Below are positions 13,076 to 57,805 of a stretch of 64,000 bases of DNA, piece by piece (position 1 is the first letter of the stretch; every line of letters begins with the position of its first letter). The DNA comes from Christensenellaceae bacterium (GTDB lineage: Bacteria > Bacillota > Clostridia > Christensenellales > Borkfalkiaceae). Both the position numbers and the translations under genes were made by a program. The stretch is taken from assembly GCA_045589175.1 (NCBI GenBank), contig JAZNFS010000033.1:90734-154733 (forward strand), written 5' to 3'. The notes beneath the pieces were generated by a model that worked only from the letters and a program-made list of their open reading frames with translations, was not told where the DNA came from and did no database searches.

Positions 13076-13204
13076 CACACCCTATTACCCCTTGTTCGCC
13101 AAAAATCTCACCTTATTGAACAAGCCTGCGATCTTGGAGATTTTTGCCTTAAAACAAAAACAGCGCCCCTTAAAAAGATGATTACAATTAAACGAATATA
13201 ATAT

Positions 13205-13245
13205 AAAAAGTGCCGATATAACTTTACTATCGGCACTTTCGTTTT
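13205..13245. terminator. Bidirectional intrinsic terminator
   Basis: Hairpin AAAGTGCCGATA...TATCGGCACTTT has T-runs on both sides. Confidence 0.5.
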
Positions 13246-13555
13246 ATTTATTTTCTTCTATGCGTTCTATTAAAAAGCTTACGGGGCGAAACCCGTCGTT
13301 ACAGGATATTAAAGCGGAATATGGATTTTTCATCCAACCGTCATAAAAATTACCGCCACCTAAGGCAAGTTCTTTAACAAAAGGATAAACGCTTTCCCAC
13401 GCGCTTTTACAAAACCCTTTGGGGCAACTTGCGTTCTCGCTTATAAAGGTTGTTCCTATTACGATATCGCAAGCGTGCTCGATAGGATTTTCATACTTTT
13501 CAATTAAATCTTCATAAATCGCCCTTTTTATTGGCGTTATTTTTACTTTATACAT
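13244..13555 (-). CDS. Small cysteine-containing protein (uncharacterised family, possibly TIGR04076-like)
   Basis: 103-aa ORF with conserved Cys residues (CDIV, CPKGFCKSAW). It is translationally coupled to the upstream gene. Confidence 0.4.
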   Translation of the reverse strand: MYKVKITPIKRAIYEDLIEKYENPIEHACDIVIGTTFISENASCPKGFCKSAWESVYPFVKELALGGGNFYDGWMKNPYSALISCNDGFRPVSFLIERIEENK

Positions 13556-19686: not shown

Positions 19687-19719
19687 AAATTAAGTTATAA
19701 ATCACAAGAAATATAAAAC

Positions 19720-19762
19720 AAAAGTGCCGATAATTAAGCTATATCGGCACTTTTTTGTTTTT
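19720..19762. terminator. Bidirectional intrinsic terminator (patatin gene / miaA)
   Basis: Hairpin AAAGTGCCGATAATTAAGCTATATCGGCACTTTTTTG. Confidence 0.55.
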
Positions 19763-19770
19763 ATATATTT

Positions 19771-21782: not shown

Positions 21783-22937
21783 TCAAATTTTTATACTAAG
21801 CAGGTTATCAACCGAAGAAAATAATTCTTCAAGCACCCCACTATGCATGAGTGCAAAATATAACCCAATAGCAAGCCCTACACCTAAAATTATTGCTATT
21901 AAAACCCTTAATGGTGATATAGGTGATTTGCCGGTTACTTTGCCGTTATTCCCATTAACTAAAACGGGATAATCTTTTTTGTTATACCTATAATTTAAGC
22001 GGTAAATAGGTAATAAAACGTATTTATATTTAACTGAATTATGTACTGTTGAAACGTTTAAATAGTCAATAACGTCGTAGCCGTAATAATGCAAAATATC
22101 CTGACGAAGCTGTTTATCTATAACCTCTTTAGCGTCCGCCCAACAGTCTTTAATATCCCTTGAATAATGCCTTGCCGTAAAACCCGATAAAAACTTGTTT
22201 TCGTAAACGCAAAGTGTTTCTTTTTTAAAGGGTTGAAGTTTATCAAGTTCATTTTGCGATATTCCGCCTGCAGAAATTGAAACGTCGTCAAACAATTTAG
22301 CAAAAGTTCCCTGAACGTGATGCCAAACTATGTAAGTTTCGGTGCGAGTTTTACCCTTTGAATCTCTTACCGTACGTGTTCTGCGTTCGCCAAGCCTACC
22401 TTCGTAATCTGAATAAGTATCGCTATCAAAGGTAAAAAATGGCATATAAATACCGTGAAGATTGCTTTCAACTAAGTTCTTTTTAAACTTAGTAGGCGCA
22501 AAAATACGCCTTTTTGCCCATTTTTTCGATAGATCAAGTGCACTTAAATTATCAATTAAAAAGGGATAAACTGCGGTAGGTTTTACACCGGCAAGGTCTT
22601 CGCGCTTAACGATATGCGTAGTTGAACAGTATGGGCAAATAACCGAAACTTCAACGTTTGAAACACTAAAGTTTGCACCACAGTTTTCACAACAATACAT
22701 CGTTGTTTCTTCATTCCATTTGGGAGCTTTTTGTAAAGCTTCTTCTAAACAAAACTCAGCTACGCTTTGATTTTTTTTAAAATCGACCTGCTTACCGCAA
22801 TGCCCGCATTTTAAAGTTTGAGTTAGTGGGTCAAACGACATATTTGATCCACACCCATCACATTTAATAAACACGCTTTCTTTTTGAGGGCTTGAATTTT
22901 CGCTTTCAAATTGATTAACGTTTTTATTTTCTTCCAT
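21783..22937 (-). CDS. Double zinc-ribbon protein with a C-terminal TM anchor
   Basis: Two zinc ribbons (CDGCGS...CGHCGK and CENCGA...CPYCS) and a C-terminal hydrophobic helix. Confidence 0.5.
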   Translation of the reverse strand: MEENKNVNQFESENSSPQKESVFIKCDGCGSNMSFDPLTQTLKCGHCGKQVDFKKNQSVAEFCLEEALQKAPKWNEETTMYCCENCGANFSVSNVEVSVICPYCSTTHIVKREDLAGVKPTAVYPFLIDNLSALDLSKKWAKRRIFAPTKFKKNLVESNLHGIYMPFFTFDSDTYSDYEGRLGERRTRTVRDSKGKTRTETYIVWHHVQGTFAKLFDDVSISAGGISQNELDKLQPFKKETLCVYENKFLSGFTARHYSRDIKDCWADAKEVIDKQLRQDILHYYGYDVIDYLNVSTVHNSVKYKYVLLPIYRLNYRYNKKDYPVLVNGNNGKVTGKSPISPLRVLIAIILGVGLAIGLYFALMHSGVLEELFSSVDNLLSIKI

Positions 22938-23533: not shown

Positions 23534-24598
23534 TTAATTTAATTTATTACCGCAAGATGCGCAGAATTTATCGCCAGACGCTACTTCGTTTCCACATTCT
23601 GGGCAAAAGCGCTTAACGTCCATTTTAGCGCCACATTCTGGGCAGAACTTACTGCCTGCTGCAACCTCTTTTTTACATGACTTACAAATTACGGTTGCTT
23701 TTTTAGGCTCTTCTTTTTGTGGCTTACTTTCGCTACCCTTCATTGCATCGCTCATAATAGCGCCAACTTGCGCGCCTGCACCCATGCCAACACCAACGCC
23801 CATAAACGCTCCGCCAACACCTGGGTTTTTAGCCGCGCTTCTCATTGCTTCGGCAGCAGAAACCTTCATCATAGTGTCGGTAGCATCGCCTAAAATACCG
23901 TATTTAGAGCGTTCGTCTAAAGCCTTTTCAACTTCTTGTGGAACAGACATATTTTCGATTATAAGCGTTTGTAAACTTAAACCGATTTCTTTAAACATAC
24001 TTTGTATTTTAGCCTTAACTATGGTTTGAAATTCCATTGTGTTGCCGGCTAAATCAATAACTGAAATTTTACTTTCGCCGATAGCATCTGTAATTCCCGA
24101 AACGATCATACCTTTTAGGTACTCTTGAATTGCGCTAGTTTCAAAAGAAGAATTAGTGCCAAAAAGTTGACGCATAAAGGTTGGAGCATCGTCAACCTTA
24201 AAAGCGTAAGAACCAAAACCGCGTACGCGTATAACCCCAAATTCGGGATCACGCATCATAAATGGGTTTTGTGTTCCCCATTTCATATTAGTAAATAGTT
24301 TGGTGTTAACAAAATATACGTCTAAAGTAATAGGGGTTTCAAATTTATATTTCCAAGAAGCAAGTTTAGTAAGAACGGGTAAAATTTCGCTTTCTAAGTT
24401 GTATAAGCCTGGTGTAAAAACGTCGGCAATTTGACCTTTATGTACGAAAATTGCTACTTGTGATTCTCTAACGGTAAGCGAGCTTTTGTTGTTAACTTCT
24501 TTACCACTGTTTTTAAAAGGATATTTATATACCATTCTGTTGGTGGTATCGTCTGACCATTCTATATTAAGCCTAAATAAGTTATCAAAAAGTCCCAT
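23534..24598 (-). CDS. SPFH/Band-7 domain protein with a C-terminal double zinc ribbon
   Basis: Start at MGLFDNLF (ATG 24598, AAGGAG RBS). A Gly-rich linker follows the SPFH core. The C-terminus has CKSCKK..CPECG..CPECG..CASCG. Confidence 0.7.
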   Translation of the reverse strand: MGLFDNLFRLNIEWSDDTTNRMVYKYPFKNSGKEVNNKSSLTVRESQVAIFVHKGQIADVFTPGLYNLESEILPVLTKLASWKYKFETPITLDVYFVNTKLFTNMKWGTQNPFMMRDPEFGVIRVRGFGSYAFKVDDAPTFMRQLFGTNSSFETSAIQEYLKGMIVSGITDAIGESKISVIDLAGNTMEFQTIVKAKIQSMFKEIGLSLQTLIIENMSVPQEVEKALDERSKYGILGDATDTMMKVSAAEAMRSAAKNPGVGGAFMGVGVGMGAGAQVGAIMSDAMKGSESKPQKEEPKKATVICKSCKKEVAAGSKFCPECGAKMDVKRFCPECGNEVASGDKFCASCGNKLN

Positions 24599-24768
24599 AA
24601 CATACTCCTTTGTGTCAATAAAATCATAAAATGCGCACACGCACGCATTATGATTATATATTATATCATCACTTTTATAATTTTACAATCATTTTTTATA
24701 AGTTTTTTGCTTTTTATTTTTGTTTATAGTTTATAAACACTCGTTTTTTAGTTTTTTTAAACAACTGC

Positions 24769-25386
24769 CTATTCTTCATCATCGGAGTTGTCGATATCGT
24801 CATCAAACTCTTCTATATCATCATCGAGGTCATCTTCGCAATCATCATCCGCATAATCGATATCTTCTTTCGTTTCATCTTCATCAATAGGATCTTCTTC
24901 ATAGTCTTCTATATCGTCATCCTCATCAATCGAATCTTCTTCATCATCTGGAGAGTCAAACGATAAAACCACGTCGTTTTGCTTTGGTTTTCTAAATACG
25001 ATAAAGGTATCGTAAAGATATTCGGTTGCAAAGTTTATAATCATATTCATAACAACAACCACAGTATCATTCCAACCTATTTGCACTAAAGCGTCGCCCC
25101 ACCAAGTTGAAAGTGGTGTAAATACTAAATAGTAGCAAGCAACCAAGAACATTGCAAACGGAACGTTAACCGCGCTTTTAAAGGTAAATTTACGGTTGAA
25201 AGTAAAATTCCATAAAACCGAAAGCGCAAGCGAAATTACGTAAACCCACCAGTAATATTGTTCTGGAGTAAACCAAATACCGCAAAGTAGTGCCAAAAGC
25301 TCGTAAGAAACTATTTGAATTACACCTGCCGAAATTGAAAATGCAGTAAATTTTAAAATTTGAATAAATCTTTCCTTCTTTGTCAC
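24769..25386 (-). CDS. GtrA-family membrane protein with a poly-acidic C-terminal tail
   Basis: Four-TM GtrA-like core. The last ~65 aa are nearly all D/E. Apparent GTG start at 25386 with an AAGGA RBS. Confidence 0.6.
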   Translation of the reverse strand: MTKKERFIQILKFTAFSISAGVIQIVSYELLALLCGIWFTPEQYYWWVYVISLALSVLWNFTFNRKFTFKSAVNVPFAMFLVACYYLVFTPLSTWWGDALVQIGWNDTVVVVMNMIINFATEYLYDTFIVFRKPKQNDVVLSFDSPDDEEDSIDEDDDIEDYEEDPIDEDETKEDIDYADDDCEDDLDDDIEEFDDDIDNSDDEE

Positions 25387-25426
25387 TTTTATTTCCTTTT
25401 AACAATAAAAATTGAAGATTTTTTAT

Positions 25427-25452
25427 TAAAAACCACGCTATAACGCGATTAA
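25427..25452 (-). promoter_or_regulatory. Copy A of the conserved upstream motif (TAAAAACCACGCTATAACGCGATTAA), 5' of the GtrA-like gene
   Basis: 26/26-nt identity with copies at 26122 and 28612. It lies ~40 nt upstream of the start codon. Confidence 0.55.
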
Positions 25453-25489
25453 AGGCGCTTTCATATCCTTTTAAAAGGATTTAAAAGTT

Positions 25490-26092
25490 TTATTTTAGTT
25501 TAAGCCACATAGCAGGACGCACTGCAACGTTATTACTATATGCAATATCACCACGAGTATCTATTATACCTTCACCGTCAACAAGCGCTTCACGACGTTC
25601 ACCCACGCCGGGCGAACGAAGCCACCAAAAACACGCTTTAGTAGCCGTATTTTGGTAAGCGTTATTTTTCATTGCGTACATAGTTGGCTCGCTTTGTTTG
25701 GATTTATCCGTAGGTAAATATTCTTTTGCTTCCTTTACGCTAAAAACAAATAATTTATCCTCAGTTGTAGTTATAAAACCTAATAACGACTTTTCTTCTT
25801 CAGTTTTAGTTGTTTCAATCATTTCTTTTTCTTCTTGAGTAAAGGCGTTATTATAAAATTCACCGTTTAGCCAAGCCCTTAAAGTGCATTTTTTCCAACT
25901 TGTTTTTTCATATTTTTCGTGGTAAGGCTTACAATCAATGCCGTATTTGCTAATAACAAGCACCATATTATCATCTTTTTTAACCAACAACCACTCGATA
26001 GGTTCTTTGATTTTAGGGTTAGACTTAGTATAATTACCAAACTCAATACTATCTCCTCTTTTCATTTTTGCAACTTCTTCTTTTTTTAACAT
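25490..26092 (-). CDS. DUF6273-like single-domain protein
   Basis: Motifs IEWLLV, SKYGIDCKPY, CTLRAWLNGEFYNNAF, WWLRSPG and VRPAMWL. ATG 26092 follows a GGGAGAA RBS. Confidence 0.55.
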   Translation of the reverse strand: MLKKEEVAKMKRGDSIEFGNYTKSNPKIKEPIEWLLVKKDDNMVLVISKYGIDCKPYHEKYEKTSWKKCTLRAWLNGEFYNNAFTQEEKEMIETTKTEEEKSLLGFITTTEDKLFVFSVKEAKEYLPTDKSKQSEPTMYAMKNNAYQNTATKACFWWLRSPGVGERREALVDGEGIIDTRGDIAYSNNVAVRPAMWLKLK

Positions 26093-26121
26093 TTTCACGT
26101 TCTCCCGAATTTGTTTTCATC

Positions 26122-26149
26122 TAAAACCACGCTATAACGCGATTAACAG
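26122..26149 (-). promoter_or_regulatory. Copy B of the conserved upstream motif (TAAAACCACGCTATAACGCGATTAACAG)
   Basis: Lies ~30 nt upstream of the 25490-26092 gene. Confidence 0.55.
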
Positions 26150-26195
26150 CGGTTTTGCGTTTCTTGTACTTGTCGTTTGTTTTTTATTAAGTATT

Positions 26196-28580
26196 TTAAT
26201 CTAACGTAACCCACATTGCTGGGCGCACACAACGATTCGTAAGATTCACATTTTTACCACTATCCTTAACTTTGCCATCCGAATTTACATAACCAACGAA
26301 ATTTTGATTACTACCTGGTGTTCTAATCCACCACATACAATTTTCACCATCCACATATGCACCATTTTCCCTTGCAAAGGCGGTAGGTTTACATGCCCTT
26401 TCTTCATCAACTTCAAAATGTTCTTTTGCCCCTTTGAGGCTTAATAAAAACATTTTATCGTTAGTTGAATTCCCTGGGTTTCTATTATATAAAGGGTTTT
26501 TGTCCGCGCTTACATGCATTAATTGAATTTTTAACTGTTCTTCACTGTTAAATGCACTGTTTAAAAACTCATTATTTAGCCATTTTCTTAAAGTACAACG
26601 CTCCCATGTTATATTAGTATCTTGAGAATTGTATGGCTTGCAGTCAAGAGCATATTTACTAATAAGTAACACCTTATCTTCTTGTTTTTCAAGAAGTAAC
26701 CACTCGATATCTTCTTTTATGCTAGCATCACTTTGTGGGTATTTACCAAACTTTATATAGCCACCAACTTTTGCATCGTTAAAAGGATTTAAAACCGCCT
26801 TTAAGTTTGTTTTTTCGGCTTCTTGCTTATCTTGTTTAGTCACAGCATCAAGTTCAATCCATATTACCGGACGCACAGCCATGTCAGTATTATTAACAAT
26901 GCTACCACCATTATGTATATGCCCATCACTATGGACATAACTTGCATTACTTTGAAAATGACCAGGAGTACAAAGCCACCAATTAACATTGTTTCTAAAA
27001 TCAACACTTAAGCCGTTTTGTTTTGCATAAGCAGTAGGCTTACATATTCTTAATGTATCGCTATTAAAATGCTTATTTACATCAGATATCGTTAATAAAT
27101 TTACTTTATCTTCTGTTGGTTTTCCAGCCTTTGTTCCATAAACAGGATTGCATCCTGCAGATATTAAAACTGTTGATATTTTAGTTTTCTCATCTACTGA
27201 AAAGGCATTATTAAAAAATTCATTATTTAGCCATTTTCTTAAACTGCAATTTGCCCAAGTGATATCTTCAAATTTATCATGATATTGCTTGCAATCAAGA
27301 GCATATTTACTAATCAGTAAAGCCCCGCTACCTTGTTTATCAAGAACTAACCACTCGATATCTTCTTTTGTGCTGGCATCACTTTGTGGGTATTTACCAA
27401 ACTTTATATAGTCACCCACTTTTACATTATTTAAAGCATGTTGCTTATTTTTGCTAACGCTTGGCGCTCTTCGTGACTTTTCACTTATTAATGAATCATT
27501 TTGTTCAAGCTCTTTTTTAAAACGCTTTTGCTCTTCAATTTGTTTTTGAGAATCAAAATCTTCTTCAAAACAATCGTCTGCGCACATATATTTCATAATG
27601 CGCGCTTTTACGCCATCAATATCGTAGCAATATTCAAGCCCTGCAAAAATTTCGTTAACGATACCGTCTGCCATACTCTTTGTATCGTCGAGCCTTAACT
27701 GAATACGCGGTTTTTTATACTTACAATTTATTTTATCATAAGAAAGATTAGGGAATTTATATCGCAAATTTTCTAAATCGCTCTTTTTTAAATATGGCAA
27801 TTCGTGCTTTATTGCGTCGCACTTAAAATTGCGCGAATTTTTTGAAGAGATAAATAAAAAGATTTTACTGTTATCAATAGCCTTTTCAAGCGCTTGTTGA
27901 TAGTTATTAACCGCGCCAACACCGTGCTGTAGGTTACGCATTGCAACAAAGCAAGTTAACCCTTCTTCTTCAAGGGCGGTTACAATTTGTTGAACTTTAC
28001 CCATGTCGGCGCTTGAATACGCCACGAATACGTCACGCGGTAAATTAAGCTCGTAAACGCCTTCTTCAACAAGTTCGGCTTGAGTAGCAAAAGCGGTTGT
28101 TAGGCGATTATAGGTTTGTAAATCACTACCCTTATACGCCCTTTCAATTAGGTTATTAACGCATAGCAAATATTCACTTTTTAGCGATTTAATTAAAAAG
28201 TTAACGATAGGCTCAATAACTTCGTAATGCTCTTTTACGTTTATGTTATCAATAAAATCAATTACCGCTTGTTCGTATTGACCACAAACAACTTCGTAAA
28301 AGTTTGCTAAAAAATCTTCGGGATAAATATTTTTAATATTTAAACATATAGAAACTATTTTTTCGCTATCAATAAATTTTGCAGTTGCTTCTTGCCATAA
28401 ATGACGGCGAAGCGAATTTAACTGCTCTTGCTTTTGTTTATCTAAAAAACTATCAAGAAGCTCTTGTTGTTTTTTTGCGGTAACTTGCGCATAGGTAGAG
28501 CCACAGTTTTCACACTTGCAAATTTCTTCACTTATAGGCTGTAGCGTTCCACCACAGTTTTTACAAAATAACTCTTGCAT
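26196..28580 (-). CDS. Multi-domain protein: N-terminal zinc ribbon, helical domain, TIR-like domain and three DUF6273-like repeats
   Basis: N-terminal CKNCGG..CKCENCGS. The TIR-like block reads DVFVAYSSADMGKVQQIVTALEEEGLTCFVA...KIFLFISSKNS. Three repeats each carry the EWLVL / SKYALDCK / CSLRKWLNNEF / WWL(C/R)TPG / VRP(V/A)(I/M)W motifs. Confidence 0.6.
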   Translation of the reverse strand: MQELFCKNCGGTLQPISEEICKCENCGSTYAQVTAKKQQELLDSFLDKQKQEQLNSLRRHLWQEATAKFIDSEKIVSICLNIKNIYPEDFLANFYEVVCGQYEQAVIDFIDNINVKEHYEVIEPIVNFLIKSLKSEYLLCVNNLIERAYKGSDLQTYNRLTTAFATQAELVEEGVYELNLPRDVFVAYSSADMGKVQQIVTALEEEGLTCFVAMRNLQHGVGAVNNYQQALEKAIDNSKIFLFISSKNSRNFKCDAIKHELPYLKKSDLENLRYKFPNLSYDKINCKYKKPRIQLRLDDTKSMADGIVNEIFAGLEYCYDIDGVKARIMKYMCADDCFEEDFDSQKQIEEQKRFKKELEQNDSLISEKSRRAPSVSKNKQHALNNVKVGDYIKFGKYPQSDASTKEDIEWLVLDKQGSGALLISKYALDCKQYHDKFEDITWANCSLRKWLNNEFFNNAFSVDEKTKISTVLISAGCNPVYGTKAGKPTEDKVNLLTISDVNKHFNSDTLRICKPTAYAKQNGLSVDFRNNVNWWLCTPGHFQSNASYVHSDGHIHNGGSIVNNTDMAVRPVIWIELDAVTKQDKQEAEKTNLKAVLNPFNDAKVGGYIKFGKYPQSDASIKEDIEWLLLEKQEDKVLLISKYALDCKPYNSQDTNITWERCTLRKWLNNEFLNSAFNSEEQLKIQLMHVSADKNPLYNRNPGNSTNDKMFLLSLKGAKEHFEVDEERACKPTAFARENGAYVDGENCMWWIRTPGSNQNFVGYVNSDGKVKDSGKNVNLTNRCVRPAMWVTLD

Positions 28581-28611
28581 AATTTATCTCCTTCGTTAAA
28601 ATATTTTCACT

Positions 28612-28640
28612 AAAAACCACGCTATAACGCGATTAACAGC
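28612..28640 (-). promoter_or_regulatory. Copy C of the conserved upstream motif (TAAAAACCACGCTATAACGCGATTAACAG)
   Basis: Lies ~30 nt upstream of the 794-aa gene start. Confidence 0.55.
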
Positions 28641-28700
28641 CCTTTGAATTATTTTTTTTATCTAAATTTATAAAACCTGCTATTAAGTTTTAACGTTGTA

Positions 28701-29483
28701 TCACTTTACACTTATTTGTAGAACTGGAACAATTCCTTTCATCGACGTTTGAAATGAATAGAAAATAGAGCCGTCTGTATTTCCAATCCATGCATAGTTA
28801 ATAGACGCGTGATAAGGCGAACGAAGCCACCAAGTTCCATTACCATATCTATCCAAGGTGGTAAGTATACCAACACCAGTTGCGCGAGCATAGTCGCTGG
28901 CTATCTTTTCTCTTACTGAACTTCTTCCTTCATTTTGATTATCAAGATTACATGCTTCTTGTTTACTTAATAAATAAATTTTATCTTTAGTATTTTTGCA
29001 TGCATTTTTATTTGAAGAATGCCCAGTACTTGCTTTAGTGTTGTTTACGGTTGTAACAGCGATTAACTTTTTTTGAATTTCATTAAATGCAAGATTATAA
29101 AACTCAGCGTTAAGCCAAGCCCTAATTTCACTATCCATATAAGTTTGTGGGATAGTGGAAAAAACTCGACCATCAATTATGTTTGTGCATAAAACCGATA
29201 AAGTTTCACTATCTTTTGAAAGAACTATCCACTTTATGGGCTCAACTTTAAAATAATATTCATTACCTTTAGTTATGATAGTTCCGTTTGAAAACTTATA
29301 ATTCGTATTATATGGGGTTGCTACTATTTTTGAATAACATTCGCCGTCGCTACCCAAGTAATAACCATTTTCATTTACAGTATCGGATACAACAACATCA
29401 TCTTCTTTAACTGATTGCGGATAAAAACCAAAATCTACTATCTCGCCTATTTTTACATTTTTTAGGATATCGTTCATTACCAT
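28701..29483 (-). CDS. DUF6273-like protein, translationally coupled to rsmA
   Basis: Motifs IKWIVL, IRAWLNAEFYNLAF and WWLRSPY. The start lies 3 nt after the rsmA stop. Confidence 0.55.
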   Translation of the reverse strand: MVMNDILKNVKIGEIVDFGFYPQSVKEDDVVVSDTVNENGYYLGSDGECYSKIVATPYNTNYKFSNGTIITKGNEYYFKVEPIKWIVLSKDSETLSVLCTNIIDGRVFSTIPQTYMDSEIRAWLNAEFYNLAFNEIQKKLIAVTTVNNTKASTGHSSNKNACKNTKDKIYLLSKQEACNLDNQNEGRSSVREKIASDYARATGVGILTTLDRYGNGTWWLRSPYHASINYAWIGNTDGSIFYSFQTSMKGIVPVLQISVK

Positions 29484-34296: not shown

Positions 34297-34649
34297 CGCT
34301 TTTCTTTTTATTATTTTCAACACAAAAGTGCCGTTAATTGCCTTATACGGGCACTTTTTAAAAAATTCTTATATCCTCGCTAACAATTTTTACTTTAATG
34401 AAAAATTAGATATCTTACTACTTTCGAACTTACCCATCAAAAATTATTGTTAGAAAAAAGAGCTTTTTTTATAACCAAAAATCGCGCAAAAAACCTTGAT
34501 AATCAACTTATTGGGACTTTTTTATTACTTTTATAGTCATTTTTCGATAATTTGTTGTTTTTTTGTTGACTTTTGAATAATATAGTTGTAAAATTAATTT
34601 ATAATTAATTGTGATATAATTATTCTTTCATATAAGGGAGGGGTTAGAA

Positions 34650-35732
34650 ATGGCAGAAAAAGAGCTTATAAAATACGTTGGTGACAACAATACTTTAGTA
34701 CATAAATTCACTTGTCCCGATTTAAAACCAACTGCAGAACTTATGGTTCACGACTCGCAAGAAGCGGTTTTTTATAAAAACGGCCAAGCGTTAGACGTTT
34801 TTCCAGGCGGTATTCATTCTTTAAAACCTGAAAACGTACCATTTTTAAAACGTGTTTTCGGCGCTATTTTTGGCGGACCAAACACCTTCCCTTGCGATAT
34901 ATTCTTTGTAAATAAAGTTTCTGTGCTTGATATAATTTGGGGAACTGATTCTCCTATAGCGCTTGAAGATCCAAAATACCCTATGCTTATAAACGTTCGC
35001 GCAAACGGCCAAACGGGTTTAAAAATTAAAGACTCTAGCAAATTCGTTGCAAACGTAGTTGGTCAACTTCCAGAAATTAGCGTTGAAGCCGTTCGCCGTG
35101 CAATTAAAGGTATGATGATGAGTTCTATCAAAGAGTGTATTGCCATAGCAATTGCCGAACATAAAGTAAGCATTTTAGAAATTTCAACTAAACTTAGCGA
35201 ACTTTCTAACGCTATTTTAGCAAAATTAAACGCAAGAGTTGCCGATTTAGGTATTGAACTTAACCACTTTGCAATCAACTCAATCTCTGCAAGCGAAAGC
35301 GATCTTGAACAACTTCGCAAAACTAAAGCTGAAATGCTTAAGGGCTTTAGTGAAGCAGATATTGAAGCATATAAAATTTCAAGAATCAGTGAAGCGCGCG
35401 CCAAAGCACGTGAAACTGAAGGCTACACTTATGCCGACGAACGCAAATTTGACGTTTTAGAAGAAGCAGCAAAAAATGCTAACGCCCCTGCTTTTGCAGG
35501 CAACGCAGTTAACCAAATGGGCAACTCAACTTTAAACGCTCCTGCATCTAAACCAGTTCAACAAGGCACTGGTAAGGTTTGCCCCGAATGTGGTGCGCCA
35601 GTTGCAGAAGGTGCTAAGTTCTGTATGAACTGCGGTAAACAACAACCTGTTGCTATGTTCTGCCCTGAATGTGGTAACAAATGCGTTCCAGGAAGTAAAT
35701 TCTGCATGAACTGCGGAACTAAGCTCGGCTAA
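34650..35732 (+). CDS. SPFH/Band-7 domain protein with a C-terminal double zinc ribbon, paralog of 23534-24598
   Basis: SPFH core. The C-terminus has CPECGAP..CMNCGK..CPECGNK..CMNCGT. An upstream promoter reads TTGACT...TGTAAAAT. Confidence 0.7.
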   Translation: MAEKELIKYVGDNNTLVHKFTCPDLKPTAELMVHDSQEAVFYKNGQALDVFPGGIHSLKPENVPFLKRVFGAIFGGPNTFPCDIFFVNKVSVLDIIWGTDSPIALEDPKYPMLINVRANGQTGLKIKDSSKFVANVVGQLPEISVEAVRRAIKGMMMSSIKECIAIAIAEHKVSILEISTKLSELSNAILAKLNARVADLGIELNHFAINSISASESDLEQLRKTKAEMLKGFSEADIEAYKISRISEARAKARETEGYTYADERKFDVLEEAAKNANAPAFAGNAVNQMGNSTLNAPASKPVQQGTGKVCPECGAPVAEGAKFCMNCGKQQPVAMFCPECGNKCVPGSKFCMNCGTKLG

Positions 35733-36139: not shown

Positions 36140-36184
36140 TTTAATAAAAAGAAATAAAAATAAATGTTTTTTTTGGAGGAAAAA

Positions 36185-38992
36185 ATGGCTAATTTTTTAA
36201 CAGGTCGTTGTCCTAATTGTGACAGCAAGTTAGAATATTCAAGCAATGACCAAGTGGTTGTTTGTAATGCTTGTGATAGTTCTATCAGCGTTGCTCAATT
36301 ACAAGGCAACAGCGGTGCAAGCGTAGCACCTGCAGCAGCAGCATTCAGTCCTATGATGATGTTAGGTTTTGATAACCCAGAATCAGGAGTTGTTTTCGTT
36401 GAAAACTTCTTTGAAAACTATGATTGGGCAGATTATCAAGATTCAACTGAAATCAAACTTTACGAAATCAACGAAGTTATTGAAAACAATAAAATCAAAA
36501 ACGGCGCTGATGCACATTCTTGGTACTTAGCATTCAAAGGTTTAGCAGTTCCAGTAAGCAAGAAAATTGAAGGCTTGGCATTAAAAGCTAAATACATGCA
36601 CGACCAATACAATAGCGACGATAACAGCGAAAGCTTTGCAGCGTTTGACGTTTATCGTAGAGTTGTTGAAACTTTAGTTGCTCAACAAGGCGCTATCGTT
36701 AAAGAATTAGAATCAGCTATCAAATACGCTGAAAAGTTTAACCTTTCTGCCGATAAATTAGCTGAAATCAATGCTGAATTAGATGGTTTAAAGTCTCAAC
36801 TTTCTGCTTTACACCCAGTTAAAGATATCAACGAAATTCCTGAATATCTTGAAGCTCAACGCGCAGCAGATGCAAAGCTTGAAAAAGAATTACACGAAAC
36901 TAAAGGTATTAACGCGCCTGCTCTTTACCAAGCAGCTGTTGAAAATTTCAATGCTGGTGGCGAAGCTAAGAGAGCAGCTTTAAGAAGCTTTACTGAAATT
37001 CGTGGTTATGCCGACAGTAATCGTTACATTGAAAGAATCAATCACTACTATAAATATTTTGACGGCGATTTATTCTTCTTCGGTGATAAATACTATTTAT
37101 TTAGAAGAGAAGCTGCCCCAGCTCCAACCTTTGACGTTAAGAACTTAGGCGACAGCATTAAGGGTAAATTAGGCAAGAAGGGTAAAAAAGAAGCTGCTCC
37201 AGCTCCAGCACCTGTTGCTCAACCAACAGAAGTTGTAAAAACTCTTTCTTTATACGAAGTTGTTGTTGATGAAAAGAGTGGTAAGCCTGTTAAAGCTGAT
37301 AAACCTGTTTTAAGAGGTATTGAACAAGTTATTAAATACTTCAACAACTGCCTATACTTCTTCAACAGCAAGGGTATTTGCAAATTTGATTTAATTGGTA
37401 AATCTGAAACAGTTGTTGATACTGGTAAGCTTGCTGACTACAAGGCTGGTGGTAAATATCAAACAAGATTAGTTCTTAACGAAACTCACCTTCTTGTTAA
37501 GAAAAAACTTCAACCTAAGAAAGCAGAAGAGGCAAAGAAAGGTTGCTTATCATTCTTACCATTCGGCAAGAAAGCACCTGCTGCTCCTGAAAAAACTTTC
37601 AATAACTACGAATTAATTCTTATCGACTTAATGAGTGGCGAAAAGAAAACGGCTGTTAGCGAATTAGTTGACGTTGCTCTTGCATACGATAAAGAAATTT
37701 TCTACGTAAAAGCAGAATCATTAATCAAACCAGCACCTGCTAAGAAAGGTTGCTTATCATTCTTACCATTTGGCAAGAAAGAAGAAGCTCCTAAGGGTCC
37801 AGAATTCAAAACAGAACTTATGTTCTGCAACTTAAAAACAGGCGCTTGCTCAAAGATTCTTAATGAAGATTGCCAAATCCACAACGTTGTTGACGGTAAG
37901 GTTGTTTACACTCATTGGGAACCTGTTAGCCTTAACCAAGATTTATACGTTTACGATATTGCAAGCGCTCAATCAACTCTTATCGAAAATAACATTTACA
38001 GTTACTTCGACGTTATCGGTGGTAAAGTTTACTACACTATCGGTAATAAGGACTTCCGCCCATTAGTTCGCGCTAACTTCGACGGTACTGATAGAAAAGA
38101 ACTTATGAGAAACGTTGAACGCGTTATTTCTGCTAAGGGTAACTGGTTATACCTTAAGAAAGGTTCTGGTAGAAACGCTGCTATTGTTAAATTTAACGTA
38201 GAAACTGGCAAACGCGTTGTAATTTGTACACAAGTTGATAGAATTCTTCGTGAAACTTCAACTCATATCCACTACGTTGACATTTATAACAACCTACGCG
38301 TTGTTCGTACAGATGGTAAGGAAAATAGACTTATTGCTGAAAACTTTGAAACATTCTTCATCGTTGGTAAAGATTGCATCTACTATGCTCGTAACGAAGC
38401 AGTTGATACAAATGCAAGCGGTTTATCACTTTACGTAATGGATCCAGACGGCAACAATTCAAGAAAGTTAGTATTCAACGTTGAATCTATTTCAGATTAC
38501 GATGAACAATACTTATACTACAAGAAGGTTGAAACCGTTCGCTTCAAAGTTACTAAAACTATCGGCAAAGGTCAAACTGAAGAATCATTTGAATCTCGTA
38601 AGTTAACAAGCTACTACAAGTACAATAAGGAAACTGGCAAGAGCGAAGAAGTATTACTTGTTGGTTGGCCAACCGGTAGCTCAACTTACCAAGAAAAGAC
38701 TGGTTGCTTAGCTAAATTCGGTATTGGTAAGACTAAAGACGTTAAGACCGATAACATATACGAAAGAATTCCTGCTAAGTGCAGATTTAAATACAGAGGT
38801 CTTGCTGCTGCCGGCGCTGTAGAAGCTGAACACGCTGCAGAAGAAGAAAAGAAGAACAATCCAGCACCTGCTGCTGGCGCACCTGCTAACGCTCCAGCTG
38901 CTCAAGGCGGAATTTTAGGTAAAATTACTTCTGCTTTAACTAACCTTAAAAACCGCGTTGTTGGATTCTTTAAAAAACTTTTCAAAAAATAA
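36185..38992 (+). CDS. Large zinc-ribbon / DUF5050 (beta-propeller-like) protein with an internal tandem repeat and a C-terminal amphipathic helix
   Basis: ATG 36185 follows a GGAGG RBS. N-terminal CPNCDS..CNACDS. KKGCLSFLPFGKK occurs twice. Propeller-like DG-x-VYYT repeats follow. Confidence 0.55.
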   Translation: MANFLTGRCPNCDSKLEYSSNDQVVVCNACDSSISVAQLQGNSGASVAPAAAAFSPMMMLGFDNPESGVVFVENFFENYDWADYQDSTEIKLYEINEVIENNKIKNGADAHSWYLAFKGLAVPVSKKIEGLALKAKYMHDQYNSDDNSESFAAFDVYRRVVETLVAQQGAIVKELESAIKYAEKFNLSADKLAEINAELDGLKSQLSALHPVKDINEIPEYLEAQRAADAKLEKELHETKGINAPALYQAAVENFNAGGEAKRAALRSFTEIRGYADSNRYIERINHYYKYFDGDLFFFGDKYYLFRREAAPAPTFDVKNLGDSIKGKLGKKGKKEAAPAPAPVAQPTEVVKTLSLYEVVVDEKSGKPVKADKPVLRGIEQVIKYFNNCLYFFNSKGICKFDLIGKSETVVDTGKLADYKAGGKYQTRLVLNETHLLVKKKLQPKKAEEAKKGCLSFLPFGKKAPAAPEKTFNNYELILIDLMSGEKKTAVSELVDVALAYDKEIFYVKAESLIKPAPAKKGCLSFLPFGKKEEAPKGPEFKTELMFCNLKTGACSKILNEDCQIHNVVDGKVVYTHWEPVSLNQDLYVYDIASAQSTLIENNIYSYFDVIGGKVYYTIGNKDFRPLVRANFDGTDRKELMRNVERVISAKGNWLYLKKGSGRNAAIVKFNVETGKRVVICTQVDRILRETSTHIHYVDIYNNLRVVRTDGKENRLIAENFETFFIVGKDCIYYARNEAVDTNASGLSLYVMDPDGNNSRKLVFNVESISDYDEQYLYYKKVETVRFKVTKTIGKGQTEESFESRKLTSYYKYNKETGKSEEVLLVGWPTGSSTYQEKTGCLAKFGIGKTKDVKTDNIYERIPAKCRFKYRGLAAAGAVEAEHAAEEEKKNNPAPAAGAPANAPAAQGGILGKITSALTNLKNRVVGFFKKLFKK

Positions 38993-42015: not shown

Positions 42016-42055
42016 ATAGCATGAGATGACTCGACTTGCGCGTAATCACAACGCA

Positions 42056-42103
42056 TTCTCCTTCCACCGCTAAAGCGGTCCCCCTTCCTCCCGGAGGACG
42101 GCT
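42056..42103 (+). repeat. GC-rich repeat, type B copy 1 (TTCTCCTTCCACCGCTAAAGCGGTCCCCCTTCCTCCCGGAGGACGGCT)
   Basis: Carries two short hairpins (ACCGC-TAAA-GCGGT and TCCTC-CCG-GAGGA). Near-identical copies lie at 42616 and 44721. Confidence 0.6.
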
Positions 42104-42161
42104 AATTTATATAAGCAAAATAAAAAAAAATATAGTTAATTAAAAAGGTTTTATATAAATA

Positions 42162-42539
42162 ATGTCGCTTGATTATAATAAAAAAAATATAACACTTGCA
42201 AAAAATTTACGCAAGAATGCAACGCCTCAAGAGAATCATTTATGGTATGACTTTTTATCAAAATATGATATTAGGTTTCAGCGACAAAAAGCAATAGATA
42301 ATTTTATTGCAGACTTTTATTGTCATAAAGCAAAACTTGTTATAGAAATTGACGGTTCGCAACATTATACCGAAAAGGGGAAAAGTCAAGACTTTTTTAG
42401 AACCGAGATTTTAGAGGAATATAATTTACAAGTTATACGATTTACAAACTTCGATATTGATTCCAACTTTCAGGGCGTATGCGAGTATATCGACAAAGTA
42501 GTAAAGCAAAATATTATAAACTATAAAAAGCGAATTTAA
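42162..42539 (+). CDS. DUF559 (Vsr-like endonuclease fold) protein
   Basis: Carries the ATPQENHLW..FQRQKAI.NFIADFYC..AKLVIEIDGSQH..VIRF pattern typical of the DUF559 family. Confidence 0.65.
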   Translation: MSLDYNKKNITLAKNLRKNATPQENHLWYDFLSKYDIRFQRQKAIDNFIADFYCHKAKLVIEIDGSQHYTEKGKSQDFFRTEILEEYNLQVIRFTNFDIDSNFQGVCEYIDKVVKQNIINYKKRI

Positions 42540-42542
42540 GTT

Positions 42543-42593
42543 AAGGCTCCTTCGGGGAGGGAGCTGGCGCGTATGAGACTGAGGGAGAATGCC
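42543..42593 (+). repeat. GC-rich repeat, type A copy 1 (AAGGCTCCTTCGGGGAGGGAGCTGGCG...GAGGGAGAATGCC)
   Basis: GCUCC-UUCGGGGAG-GGAGC hairpin containing a UUCG loop. Second copy at 42707. Confidence 0.55.
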
Positions 42594-42615
42594 CTTTACG
42601 TGCTTTTAATTTTTT

Positions 42616-42667
42616 CGCTTTCTCCTTCCACCGCTGAAGCGGTCCCCCTTCCTCCCGGAGGACGGCT
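42616..42667 (+). repeat. GC-rich repeat, type B copy 2
   Basis: 50/52-nt identity with copies 1 and 3. Confidence 0.6.
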
Positions 42668-42706
42668 TGGAAAATTTTGCTTAGACTTACATTATTAGTA
42701 TAAAAT

Positions 42707-42757
42707 AGGCTCCTTCGGGGAGGGAGCTGGCGTGCAAACGCCTGAGGGAGAGTGCCA
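42707..42757 (+). repeat. GC-rich repeat, type A copy 2
   Basis: Near-identical to 42543-42593 over the first 27 nt and the last 13 nt. Confidence 0.55.
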
Positions 42758-42845
42758 TTTTGCTTTTAAACGCGTTTTAAAATAGAAAAAGTTAAAAAAC
42801 AAAAACGGCTTTGTAATAATACCAAAGTCCAAAAAGGTATAAAAT

Positions 42846-44551: not shown

Positions 44552-44720
44552 TCTCTTTTAATTAAATATTATAGCACGGTAGAATATCGTTATGGTCAAA
44601 TGATAAACTACCGTGCTTTTTTATTGTTTTGGTTGTTATATTTTTTTTGAGACCTTTCGACTGACGCTCAAGGTGACATTACAATGCTCAACATGACAAA
44701 AGAAAAAGCGCGGTGTATAA

Positions 44721-44772
44721 CGCTTTCTCCTTCCACCGCTAAAGCGGTCCCCCTTCCTCCCAGAGGACGGCT
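44721..44772 (+). repeat. GC-rich repeat, type B copy 3 (followed by TTTTTT)
   Basis: CGCTTTCTCCTTCCACCGCTAAAGCGGTCCCCCTTCCTCCCAGAGGACGGCT. Confidence 0.6.
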
Positions 44773-44797
44773 TTTTTGGGGGTGGCATTATAAAAGA

Positions 44798-56896: not shown

Positions 56897-57805
56897 AACT
56901 TTATACTCCTTTACGATAATCGCTACTATATCATTAAAGTTTCGCTTTAGTTTAATATTTATTTTTTTTAGCCCTATTTTTGTTTAATCTTTGTTTTTAA
57001 ATGCGGGTTCAACACCGTTTCTCTTGTTTTTATTGTGTTTTTCGCGCACGCGCGCACCTATGCGAGTCAAAATTATAACATATTCAAACACATATCTGTC
57101 TAAAAAGATTATTTTTCCTCAAGGTTTTAAAAGCAACTGTGTTCATATGCTTTGAGAAAGCCAATTACACAATTTTTTTACAAAAATCAACGCTTTTTGT
57201 ACGGACTTAAAAATCTTAACCTTAGCATGCGCAATTCTGAAGTTTATACAAGCAACAAAACATTTTTTTTTGCGCTTTTGATCGTTGAAACGATAATGTG
57301 CCAAGTTTATCTTATTCTCAGTTTTACCTTTGGTAACAACTCTTTTTTTAAAGAATAAAAAATTTTTGTGTGTTTTTTTTAAAAAACCAAATCTTGCGTT
57401 TTTATTATATCACAAAAATCGACAAAACGCCACTATTTTACTACCCTTTATTAATAATTAATAAAATTATTTTCTTACTTGATTTTTTATGCCAAAAATT
57501 ATAAATAAAATTGCCGAATTTTTGTGGTTTTTTACTAACTTTTCTAAAAAATAAGGTGTTTTTTCAATTTCCAAACAAAACTAAAGTTGTAAGCGACAAA
57601 CTTTTAATTGTATCTTCAAATAAACCCACGACTTCGCTTAAAAAACGTAACAAAAATAGCGAGCTTTAACGAGATAAAATTTTTTAAAAAACACGGGGAA
57701 TTTTAATATAAAAGTGACGTTTATCAACTTATAGGCTTACTTTTTTGTAATTTATAATCCTTAAAAAACGCTTAAAAATAATCCGATATTTTTTTAAGAA
57801 AGTTA

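Follow-up and report, generated by a model that had tools for sequence, protein, structure and literature searches.

A TIR protein with paired C-type-lectin-like DUF6273 repeats, and its family of conserved heads and interchangeable C-terminal arrays, at a Christensenellaceae locus

In a 64,000-nt stretch of a Christensenellaceae genome (contig JAZNFS010000033.1, positions 90,734 to 154,733; hereafter the window), a gene on the minus strand encodes a 794-amino-acid (aa) protein that joins a zinc ribbon, a helical domain, a TIR domain, a charged linker, and two DUF6273 repeats. An earlier note on this DNA, made from the sequence alone, had proposed this order of domains, and Pfam, an AlphaFold2 (AF2) model, and the positions of the sequence motifs bear it out. 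What the earlier reading overlooked is that residues ~1-340 are, as judged from relatives, a conserved head unit that carries interchangeable C-terminal arrays. At the locus itself, one such cassette has been replaced by another between this genome and a sister genome. By analogy with SpbK of Bacillus subtilis, we tentatively propose that the protein is a cytoplasmic single-chain sensor-effector, in which the binding of a ligand by the DUF6273 pair would cluster several chains and activate the TIR domain as an NADase. We give this proposal close to an even chance of being right, and we discuss below the evidence that bears on it and on the alternatives.

Architecture and the TIR domain

The open reading frame (ORF) at 26196-28580 begins at an ATG that is preceded by an AAGGAG ribosome-binding site, and its length and extent are as first reported. 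The protein is a singleton cluster at 90% identity (among about 15 billion proteins) but has 732 homologues at E ≤ 1e-5. Because of these homologues and the Pfam E-values given below, we consider its features to be far beyond chance. They are laid out as follows.

26196..28580, minus strand: whole gene, zinc ribbon / helical / TIR / two DUF6273 repeats (Pfam, hydropathy, clustering)
28488..28580, minus strand: N-terminal zinc ribbon, residues 1-31, with C6, C9, C23, and C26 (CxxC pairs, AF2 strands, Cys conservation)
28065..28487, minus strand: family-specific eight-helix domain, residues 32-172 (AF2 helices, pLDDT 85-95)
27582..28037, minus strand: TIR domain, residues 182-333 (Pfam TIR_2, AF2, Foldseek)
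27801..27803, minus strand: codon of Glu260, candidate catalytic glutamate on predicted helix αC, residues 255-271 (invariant in 189 head modules)
27429..27581, minus strand: charged linker, probably disordered, residues 334-384 (43% D/E/K/R; low pLDDT)
26847..27428, minus strand: DUF6273 repeat 1, residues 385-578 (PF19789, tblastn, alignment)
26199..26780, minus strand: DUF6273 repeat 2, residues 601-794, with a C-type-lectin-like fold (PF19789, fold match)

The AF2 model of residues 1-345, made with 69 homologues, has a predicted local distance difference test score (pLDDT) of 89.9 and a predicted template modelling score of 0.79. In it, the ribbon is three-stranded, eight helices span residues 32-172, and residues 182-333 form a βαβ domain. 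The ribbon had been recognised earlier from its CxxC...CxxC pattern, and the two pairs are indeed at residues 6-9 and 23-26; its three strands (within residues 1-31) are short, its four cysteines are 97-98% conserved in 189 relatives, and it gives weak profile matches to L37Ae/RpoP-type ribbons. The helical region, which had been put at ~150 aa, corresponds to the eight helices of the model. A profile search with residues 32-172 found no significant relative in PDB or Pfam. The charged linker was also called correctly, and pLDDT is below 50 from residue 336 on. We considered a STAND/NLR-like identity, in which a central P-loop NTPase would lie between the effector and the repeats, and rejected it: we found no Walker A motif or P-loop in the protein and no NTPase family in Pfam, and what lies between the ribbon and the TIR domain is all-helical.

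Three lines of evidence identify the TIR-like block of the earlier note as a TIR domain. First, the Pfam model TIR_2 (PF13676) matches residues 184-252 with 36.8 bits (curated cut-off 28, E = 6.4e-9), and it matches 22 of 22 relatives tested. Second, when the model was compared to PDB with Foldseek, the top matches were PdTIR, AbTir, TcpB, BtpA, TIR-1, MAL, and TIR-STING, each with a probability of 1.0; the domain has the flavodoxin-like five-strand β/α fold and can be superposed on TIR domains of known structure. Third, a family profile of the TIR region matches the TIR chains of TRR-2, MyD88, TIRAP, and TLRs in PDB (E = 1e-3 to 5e-2). (A PDB search with the TIR region alone gave chance matches only, and in a search with the full-length family alignment A1 the LRR_5 part dominated the result.) Because Foldseek ranks TIR domains first, the profile finds TIR chains, and TIR_2 matches every relative tested, the region does not fall into an unrelated fold, which is the outcome that the earlier note had named as fatal to its assignment.

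Catalytic TIR domains carry a glutamate on helix αC. Across the 189 relatives, E260 is 100% invariant, as are twelve further TIR residues (R182, F185, Y188, D192, F211, N216, L217, G220, Y227, A234, S245, and R250), and S189 and S190 are 96-97% conserved. Conservation of 94-100% at E260, in the βA motif (RDVFVAYSSxD), and in the BB-loop motif (CFVAxRNLxHGxGA) speaks for a catalytic or assembly site under constraint and not for a decayed domain. E260 is a candidate equivalent of the catalytic glutamate of SARM1, AbTir, or SpbK, and we infer by homology that the TIR domain is active. In SpbK, the corresponding TIR elements contain S121/S122 and Y188/E192 (PMC12847820). When we compared the TIR profile to an approximate sequence of the SARM1 TIR domain with hhalign, βA-βC alone aligned (43% probability), and the catalytic glutamate was not reached.

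The DUF6273 repeats and localisation

The earlier note had counted three DUF6273 repeats of ~190 aa. The repeats are there, and so are the motifs that were quoted for them (EWLxLxK, SKYALDCKxY, C[TS]LRKWLNNEF, WWxxTPG, and VRPxxW), but the count is two, because every one of these motifs is present exactly two times and Pfam reports a pair of stretches (PF19789, E = 2.3e-53). The other copies are separate genes: a tblastn search of the window with repeat 2 finds four copies, which are repeat 2 itself, repeat 1 (54% identical), and two stand-alone paralogues that flank the TIR gene, gene A downstream of it (40%) and gene B upstream (27%). In DNA, repeats 1 and 2 are 70-93% identical over the first ~240 aligned columns and 43-63% identical over the remainder.

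Along with the profile match, the repeat has a C-type-lectin/FGE-like fold. Its nearest solved relative is the domain at the N-terminus of the IgA protease ThomasA of Thomasclavelia ramosa (PDB 9qa6). Further fold matches (scores in parentheses) are the C-terminal domain of Legionella Lcl (8.3), a Bacteroides fimbrial protein (7.8), and TvpA (7.1), a target of a diversity-generating retroelement (DGR) in Treponema; lower matches include FGE-like domains (OvoA, EgtB, and PvdO), many C-type lectins (~5), and Mtd of a Bordetella phage (4.5). This agrees with the description of DUF6273 as a C-type-lectin-like domain of gut-phage receptor-binding proteins, in which the DGR variable region is C-terminal (PMC10743442, PMC11792537, bioRxiv 2024.10.15.618418). 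In an alignment of 41 domain copies, variability peaks at residues ~755-784, directly ahead of the invariant VRPxxW, which is where the variable regions of the phage proteins map. The suggestion that a binding array is attached to a signalling or effector domain fits both the fold and the use of this scaffold in phage receptor binding, except that the array is duplicated and not triplicated. By homology, the array probably binds a ligand.

As DUF6273 is a documented DGR target (PMC11792537, PMC10743442), and as the most variable stretch of the family's domain is at the matching position, the C-termini of the repeats might be hypermutated by a DGR, as in gut phages. We consider this highly improbable, and we rejected a DGR target at this locus. 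There is no reverse transcriptase (RT)-like ORF and no template/variable repeat pair in the 64-kb window, none of the first 74 related loci has an RT-like ORF, and the genes that flank three other TIR-DUF6273 genes include no RT-type Pfam family. Also, the differences between repeat 1 and repeat 2 involve all four bases and are not confined to adenine positions. Nor is ongoing positive selection evident in the loops: the two stand-alone paralogues differ from their orthologues in a related genome (L004, described below) by 8 and 4 substitutions, and these are not clustered in the hypervariable loops.

The 794-aa protein and paralogues A and B are all predicted to be cytoplasmic, because none of them has a hydrophobic segment. 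We found no signal peptide or membrane segment in the 794-aa protein, whose maximum 19-residue Kyte-Doolittle mean is 0.90; the maxima for A and B are 0.73 and 0.93. More broadly, 29 of the 31 proteins that combine the head with DUF6273 have no membrane segment. The cysteines of DUF6273 are another circumstantial piece of evidence. Three cysteine columns are conserved at 0.88, 0.79, and 0.62 in exported copies versus 0.47, 0.37, and 0.37 in TIR-fused copies without a membrane segment. (A fourth column is at 0.56 in exported and TIR-fused copies alike.) The relaxed conservation would fit the loss of a disulfide constraint in the cytoplasm, and we take it as suggestive because the copies are not phylogenetically independent.

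These observations bear on the possibility that the protein is a transmembrane or surface receptor like the Toll-like receptors (TLRs), with the TIR domain inside the cell and a lectin or leucine-rich repeat (LRR) array outside it, sensing ligands from the host, phages, or neighbouring cells. The 794-aa protein would then have to be exported or anchored by an unrecognised route, as it has no membrane segment between the TIR domain and the array and its linker is highly charged. Proteins with DUF6273 or LRR_5 are typically exported or on the cell surface, and the nearest solved relative is part of a secreted IgA protease (PMC12402451). Kinase, sigma70, and head proteins with a transmembrane (TM) segment ahead of DUF6273 exist (kinase-TM-DUF6273, sigma70-TM-DUF6273, and the two head-TM-DUF6273 proteins P0017 and P0019), and repeat 2 retains the four cysteine columns that are typical of exported copies. 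Given the missing hydrophobic segments in the 794-aa protein, in both flanking paralogues, and in nearly all of the head+DUF6273 proteins, we think that a receptor of this kind is quite unlikely here.

Conserved heads, interchangeable arrays, and cassette replacement

At E ≤ 1e-30, an exhaustive phmmer search gave at least 452 clusters (50% identity, by representative). Nearly all of the matches listed cover residues ~1-335 and are N-terminal in proteins of 286-3132 aa, and residues 1-340 are 40-85% identical to more than 90 proteins. The relatives share the head from end to end: the four-cysteine ribbon, a helical domain of ~140 aa, and a TIR domain with the motifs RDVFVAYSS, CFVAxRNLxHG, CDAxxxE, and YKKPR. 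The C-terminal parts consist of DUF6273 (1-6 copies), BspA-type LRR_5, TM2/'NINE' domains, multi-pass membrane segments, TPR, Sel1, MORN, or an L7/L12-like domain. The nearest heads (75-85% identity) carry LRR_5, six DUF6273 repeats, or a TM2 anchor, so array swapping is recent. For example, a 1828-aa paralogue in the sister genome RGIG6167 (L003:7488-12971, plus strand) has a head that is 75% identical, followed by the six DUF6273 repeats, and P0013 consists of a head and a TM2-domain membrane anchor alone. Another paralogue (P0007) is on the same contig as the 794-aa protein. There is no NCBIfam model for the head family, and we found no description of it in the literature that we searched; current pipelines label its members as 'leucine-rich repeat protein', 'NINE protein', or 'hypothetical'.

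In a scan of species-representative genomes, we found 74 head loci, nearly all of them in metagenome-assembled genomes of gut or rumen Clostridia. (The minority includes Anaeroplasma bactoclasticum ATCC 27112, Acholeplasmatales, Erysipelotrichaceae, and Christensenella.) A genome can contain up to 5-6 or more head paralogues, with tandem runs of 2-4 genes at some loci. In the phage collection that we searched, the TIR head is absent, and the DUF6273 repeat has weak matches in 2 records (29-31% identity).

The prevalence of gut and rumen organisms would also fit an effector or adhesin that a gut commensal aims at its host, with a TIR domain that mimics or attacks host TIR signalling (as with TcpB/BtpA) and arrays that bind host molecules. 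Virulence-related TIR domains (PdTIR, TcpB, and BtpA) are top Foldseek matches, and DUF6273 is present in an IgA-cleaving protease (PMC12402451). However, the 794-aa protein has no secretion signal, the window contains no secretion-system genes, and a host-directed role does not account well for the many paralogues per genome in uncultured commensals. As the head is also absent from the phage collection and we found no sign of horizontal virulence cargo, we regard this role as very unlikely.

The exchange of arrays can be seen directly at the locus. The features on either side of the TIR gene are as follows.

28701..29483, minus strand: gene B, stand-alone divergent DUF6273 paralogue of 260 aa with an N-terminal hairpin insertion (Pfam E = 8e-21)
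28604..28656, minus strand: 53-nt element copy 1, between gene B and the TIR gene (repeat family D2; synteny breakpoint versus L004)
26114..26166, minus strand: 53-nt element copy 2, between the TIR gene and gene A (repeat family D2)
25490..26092, minus strand: gene A, stand-alone DUF6273 paralogue of 200 aa from its ATG, with an alternative GTG at 26098 (Pfam E = 2.3e-27)
25420..25472, minus strand: 53-nt element copy 3, between gene A and the GtrA-like gene (repeat family D2)

Locus L004 of Clostridia bacterium RGIG6167, from sheep rectum, is syntenic with the window, and the flanks are 91-95% identical in DNA. Paralogues A and B are 96% and 98.5% identical to their L004 orthologues. The order in L004 is rsmA, B, A, a gene for an 859-aa protein (head, coiled coil, and LRR_5), the GtrA-like gene, and the SPFH gene, and the order in the window is rsmA, B, the head with two DUF6273 repeats, A, the GtrA-like gene, and the SPFH gene. 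In the head, DNA identity between the two loci is just 79%, and the L004 array is LRR, not DUF6273. Each junction between the window and L004 coincides with a 53-nt intergenic element. Thus, between these two genomes, a cassette has been replaced at the rsmA-GtrA locus. Genes B and A are adjacent in a third genome as well (MBR3864932 and MBR3864931).

The 24-nt core of the 53-nt element (TTAATCGCGTTATAGCGTGGTTTT) occurs exactly three times in the window, versus 0 expected. The element has a short hairpin followed by a U run, with strong folding in one of the three copies; a scan for the terminator consensus did not flag it, and Rfam has no match anywhere in the window. It may be a weak terminator, a 5' leader, or mere recombination homology. 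We also considered whether genes A and B could be silent donor cassettes for gene conversion, but this is unsupported because A (40%) and B (27%) are less similar to repeats 1 and 2 than the repeats in other TIR fusions are (52-56%).

Genomic context and proposed role

In the mechanism that we tentatively propose, the DUF6273 loops would bind a multivalent ligand, probably an invader-derived protein or glycan, which would concentrate several chains. The TIR domains would then assemble head-to-tail to form composite active sites, and Glu260 would cleave NAD+, leading to NAD+ depletion or to an ADPR-type signal. The cell would then undergo abortive infection or start immune signalling, as has been shown experimentally for SpbK, where a helical sensor domain is joined to a TIR domain that is activated by clustering on the phage portal (PMC12847820). 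The helical domain of the 794-aa protein may keep the TIR domain inactive until ligand-driven clustering. The logic that has been proposed for the 'antigen sensors' with TIR and CLec domains resembles this mechanism (PMC10907252).

Several observations weigh against the proposal. First, the gene is not in a defence island: its neighbours are housekeeping genes (metG, tatD, rsmA, miaA, tilS, hpt, and yidD), the window contains no defence or mobile genes besides a DUF559 ORF, and we found no partner effector. Three other TIR-DUF6273 genes are also among housekeeping genes (for example, tig-clpP-clpX-[gene]-lon, and luxS), and PADLOC gives one weak ThsB-like match (ThsB1, 15.6 bits, E = 0.002). 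Second, the alignments to solved TIR domains, whether by sequence or by profile, end before αC, and E260 is 6 residues past a conserved cysteine. Third, DUF6273 is behind a signal peptide or a membrane segment in 20 of 26 non-TIR relatives (lipoproteins and the kinase and sigma70 fusions mentioned above), and a crude hydropathy test places hydrophobic segments after the TIR domain in about 40% of family members, in keeping with the idea that part of the family acts as membrane receptors. Finally, head genes are linked to genes of membrane stress, which we consider a main weakness, beside the missing defence context and the membrane-bearing relatives. Because of these three weaknesses, we retain two alternatives for parts of the family: a role that is non-enzymatic or in envelope stress, and a role as TLR-like membrane receptors.

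The link to membrane stress comes from a recurring island, in which head genes are found at 16 of 74 loci. Its order is a Snf7-like gene, an FtsK-like ATPase, the head gene(s), an AAA ATPase, an XRE regulator, a Zn-ribbon/Sel1/trypsin-like protease, and an SPFH/Zn-ribbon gene. (Examples are L011, L034, L040, L047, L048, L054, L069, L070, L073, and L074, as at L011:1635-12382 and L070:5001-15530.) Hence, the TIR domain could be a non-enzymatic module for homotypic assembly, or an adaptor, in a housekeeping or envelope/membrane-stress pathway, with arrays whose ligands are endogenous (for example, glycans or proteins of the cell envelope). The housekeeping contexts and the island would both fit this, as would the SPFH/Zn-ribbon gene that is two genes away from the TIR gene and members such as P0013 with no array beyond a membrane anchor. 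In contrast, catalytic TIR domains are the ones that show this pattern of an invariant glutamate on αC and invariant motifs in βA and the BB-loop, and the fast turnover of paralogues and the swapping of arrays would be unusual for a housekeeping function. Also, apart from SPFH/Zn-ribbon genes (the nearby one and a second copy at 34650-35732), the island is missing from the window: a tblastn search with the Snf7-like, FtsK-like, AAA, protease, and SPFH island proteins gave a single match, a short one in the SPFH gene at 23534-24640, to its zinc-ribbon tail. Overall, we judge a non-enzymatic role for this protein to be unlikely, but it is the alternative to which we give the most weight. If the TIR domain proves inactive, the heads would still be a large unannotated family of paralogues.

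Some features of the island and of the neighbouring genes are worth recording. The Snf7/ESCRT-III-like island protein is helical, with ~190 aa and an acidic C-terminal tail (EFDxEIDxM) that, in our reading, resembles a MIM motif; the FtsK-like ATPase has a helical N-terminus and no membrane segment evident by eye, and the AAA ATPase (~370 aa) has a helical N-terminal region. The island at L048 also includes TerD genes. In the window, zinc-ribbon proteins are unusually dense around the locus. The SPFH (Band_7_1) paralogues at 23534-24640 (minus strand) and 34650-35732 (plus strand) have C-terminal double zinc ribbons and are each 27% identical to the other's L004 counterpart; this SPFH/zinc-ribbon type recurs near head genes at L018, L039, L048, L054, and L069. 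The 384-aa protein at 21783-22937 (minus strand) has two zinc ribbons near its N-terminus, one C-terminal membrane segment, and no Pfam family above threshold, and it is 93% identical in L004. The GtrA-like membrane protein (24769-25386, minus strand; Pfam just under the cut-off) has a C-terminal tail of ~70 aa that is nearly pure Asp/Glu and is 97% conserved in L004.

Farther from the TIR gene, GC-rich repeats in this AT-rich genome (59-nt copies at 42050-42108, 42614-42672, and 44719-44777, and 54-nt copies at 42544-42597 and 42707-42760; 85-93% identical) flank the DUF559 ORF (42162-42539, plus strand; Pfam E = 3e-27). They have no Rfam match and look like remnants of a small repeated element. 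A palindromic element, AAAAGTGCCGATA...TATCGGCACTTTT, lies between convergent or adjacent genes at 13196-13254, 19706-19764, 34312-34362, and 57698-57748, resembling a bidirectional terminator. The gene at 36164-38992 (plus strand) encodes a 942-aa protein with a DUF5050 domain and contains a 66-nt direct repeat (37520-37585 and 37727-37792, 82% identical).

A close functional precedent for the proposed sensor-effector is SpbK (YddK) of the B. subtilis element ICEBs1, which achieves abortive infection with a single TIR protein. SpbK has 266 aa, a four-helix N-terminal sensor, and no repeat array, whereas the 794-aa protein has a zinc ribbon and an eight-helix domain, and its presumed sensor is the tandem lectin-like array at the C-terminus. 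Also, SpbK is on a mobile element, while the gene for the 794-aa protein is among housekeeping genes. We rejected an identity with Thoeris, where ThsB is a small stand-alone TIR protein beside ThsA: there is only the weak ThsB1 match, no SIR2/SLOG or other ThsA-like gene is near the 794-aa gene, and the neighbours are DUF6273 genes, rsmA, tatD, metG, and the GtrA-like, SPFH, and miaA genes.

The CLec 'antigen sensor' proteins of Thiohalocapsa and cyanobacteria likewise combine a sensor, of C-type-lectin fold, with effectors, including TIR domains, in one protein or locus (PMC10907252, PMC7517822). They have in common with the 794-aa protein a variable binding domain on a constant effector. However, the CLec sensors usually occur with STAND, MoxR, or other NTPases and an adjacent DGR, while the 794-aa protein is without a P-loop, RT, or template repeat; variation arises by DGR in the CLec sensors and by paralogue expansion and cassette exchange in the head family. 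The CLec subfamily also differs (FGE-sulfatase type versus DUF6273). The DUF6273 receptor-binding proteins of phages (tentaclins, Mtd-like targets) share PF19789, the C-type-lectin-like fold, and the C-terminal position of the variable loop (PMC10743442; bioRxiv 2024.10.15.618418), but they are virion proteins with Ig-like fusions that are hypermutated by DGRs, and the TIR head is not found in the phage collection. ThomasA is a secreted, sortase-anchored metallopeptidase with a single DUF6273 domain and an M64 peptidase instead of a TIR domain (PMC12402451).

Like TLRs and plant TIR-NLRs, the head family joins a recognition module to a TIR domain and builds its repertoire by paralogue expansion, and some of its members have LRR arrays or a membrane segment between the TIR domain and the array. 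The likeness is architectural: the TIR domain is N-terminal (the reverse order), the LRRs are BspA-type (LRR_5), and the 794-aa protein has neither a membrane segment nor NB-ARC. A broader idea is that gut and rumen Clostridia and some Mollicutes-like relatives have a germline receptor repertoire that mirrors TLRs and TIR-NLRs, whether cytoplasmic or membrane-spanning, that is diversified by cassette exchange at intergenic elements and not by DGR, and in which the island ties the TIR domain to membrane remodelling or repair. We offer this as speculation that is unlikely to be correct.

Animals, plants, and bacteria all use TIR domains in immunity, as a currency that they share. To our knowledge, the defence and signalling systems of uncultured gut Clostridia have barely been explored. 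For bacterial TIR proteins, the question concerns the inputs that they detect and the way in which detection is linked to NAD+ cleavage. The arrays of the head family include a lectin-like fold whose other known occurrences are in an IgA protease and in receptor-binding proteins of phages, and they show DUF6273 in new surroundings: there is no DGR, the protein is predicted to be cytoplasmic, and diversification is by cassette exchange. Thus, the head family would give a natural set of receptors with the same output and different inputs, in which the coupling of sensing to NAD+ cleavage could be studied.

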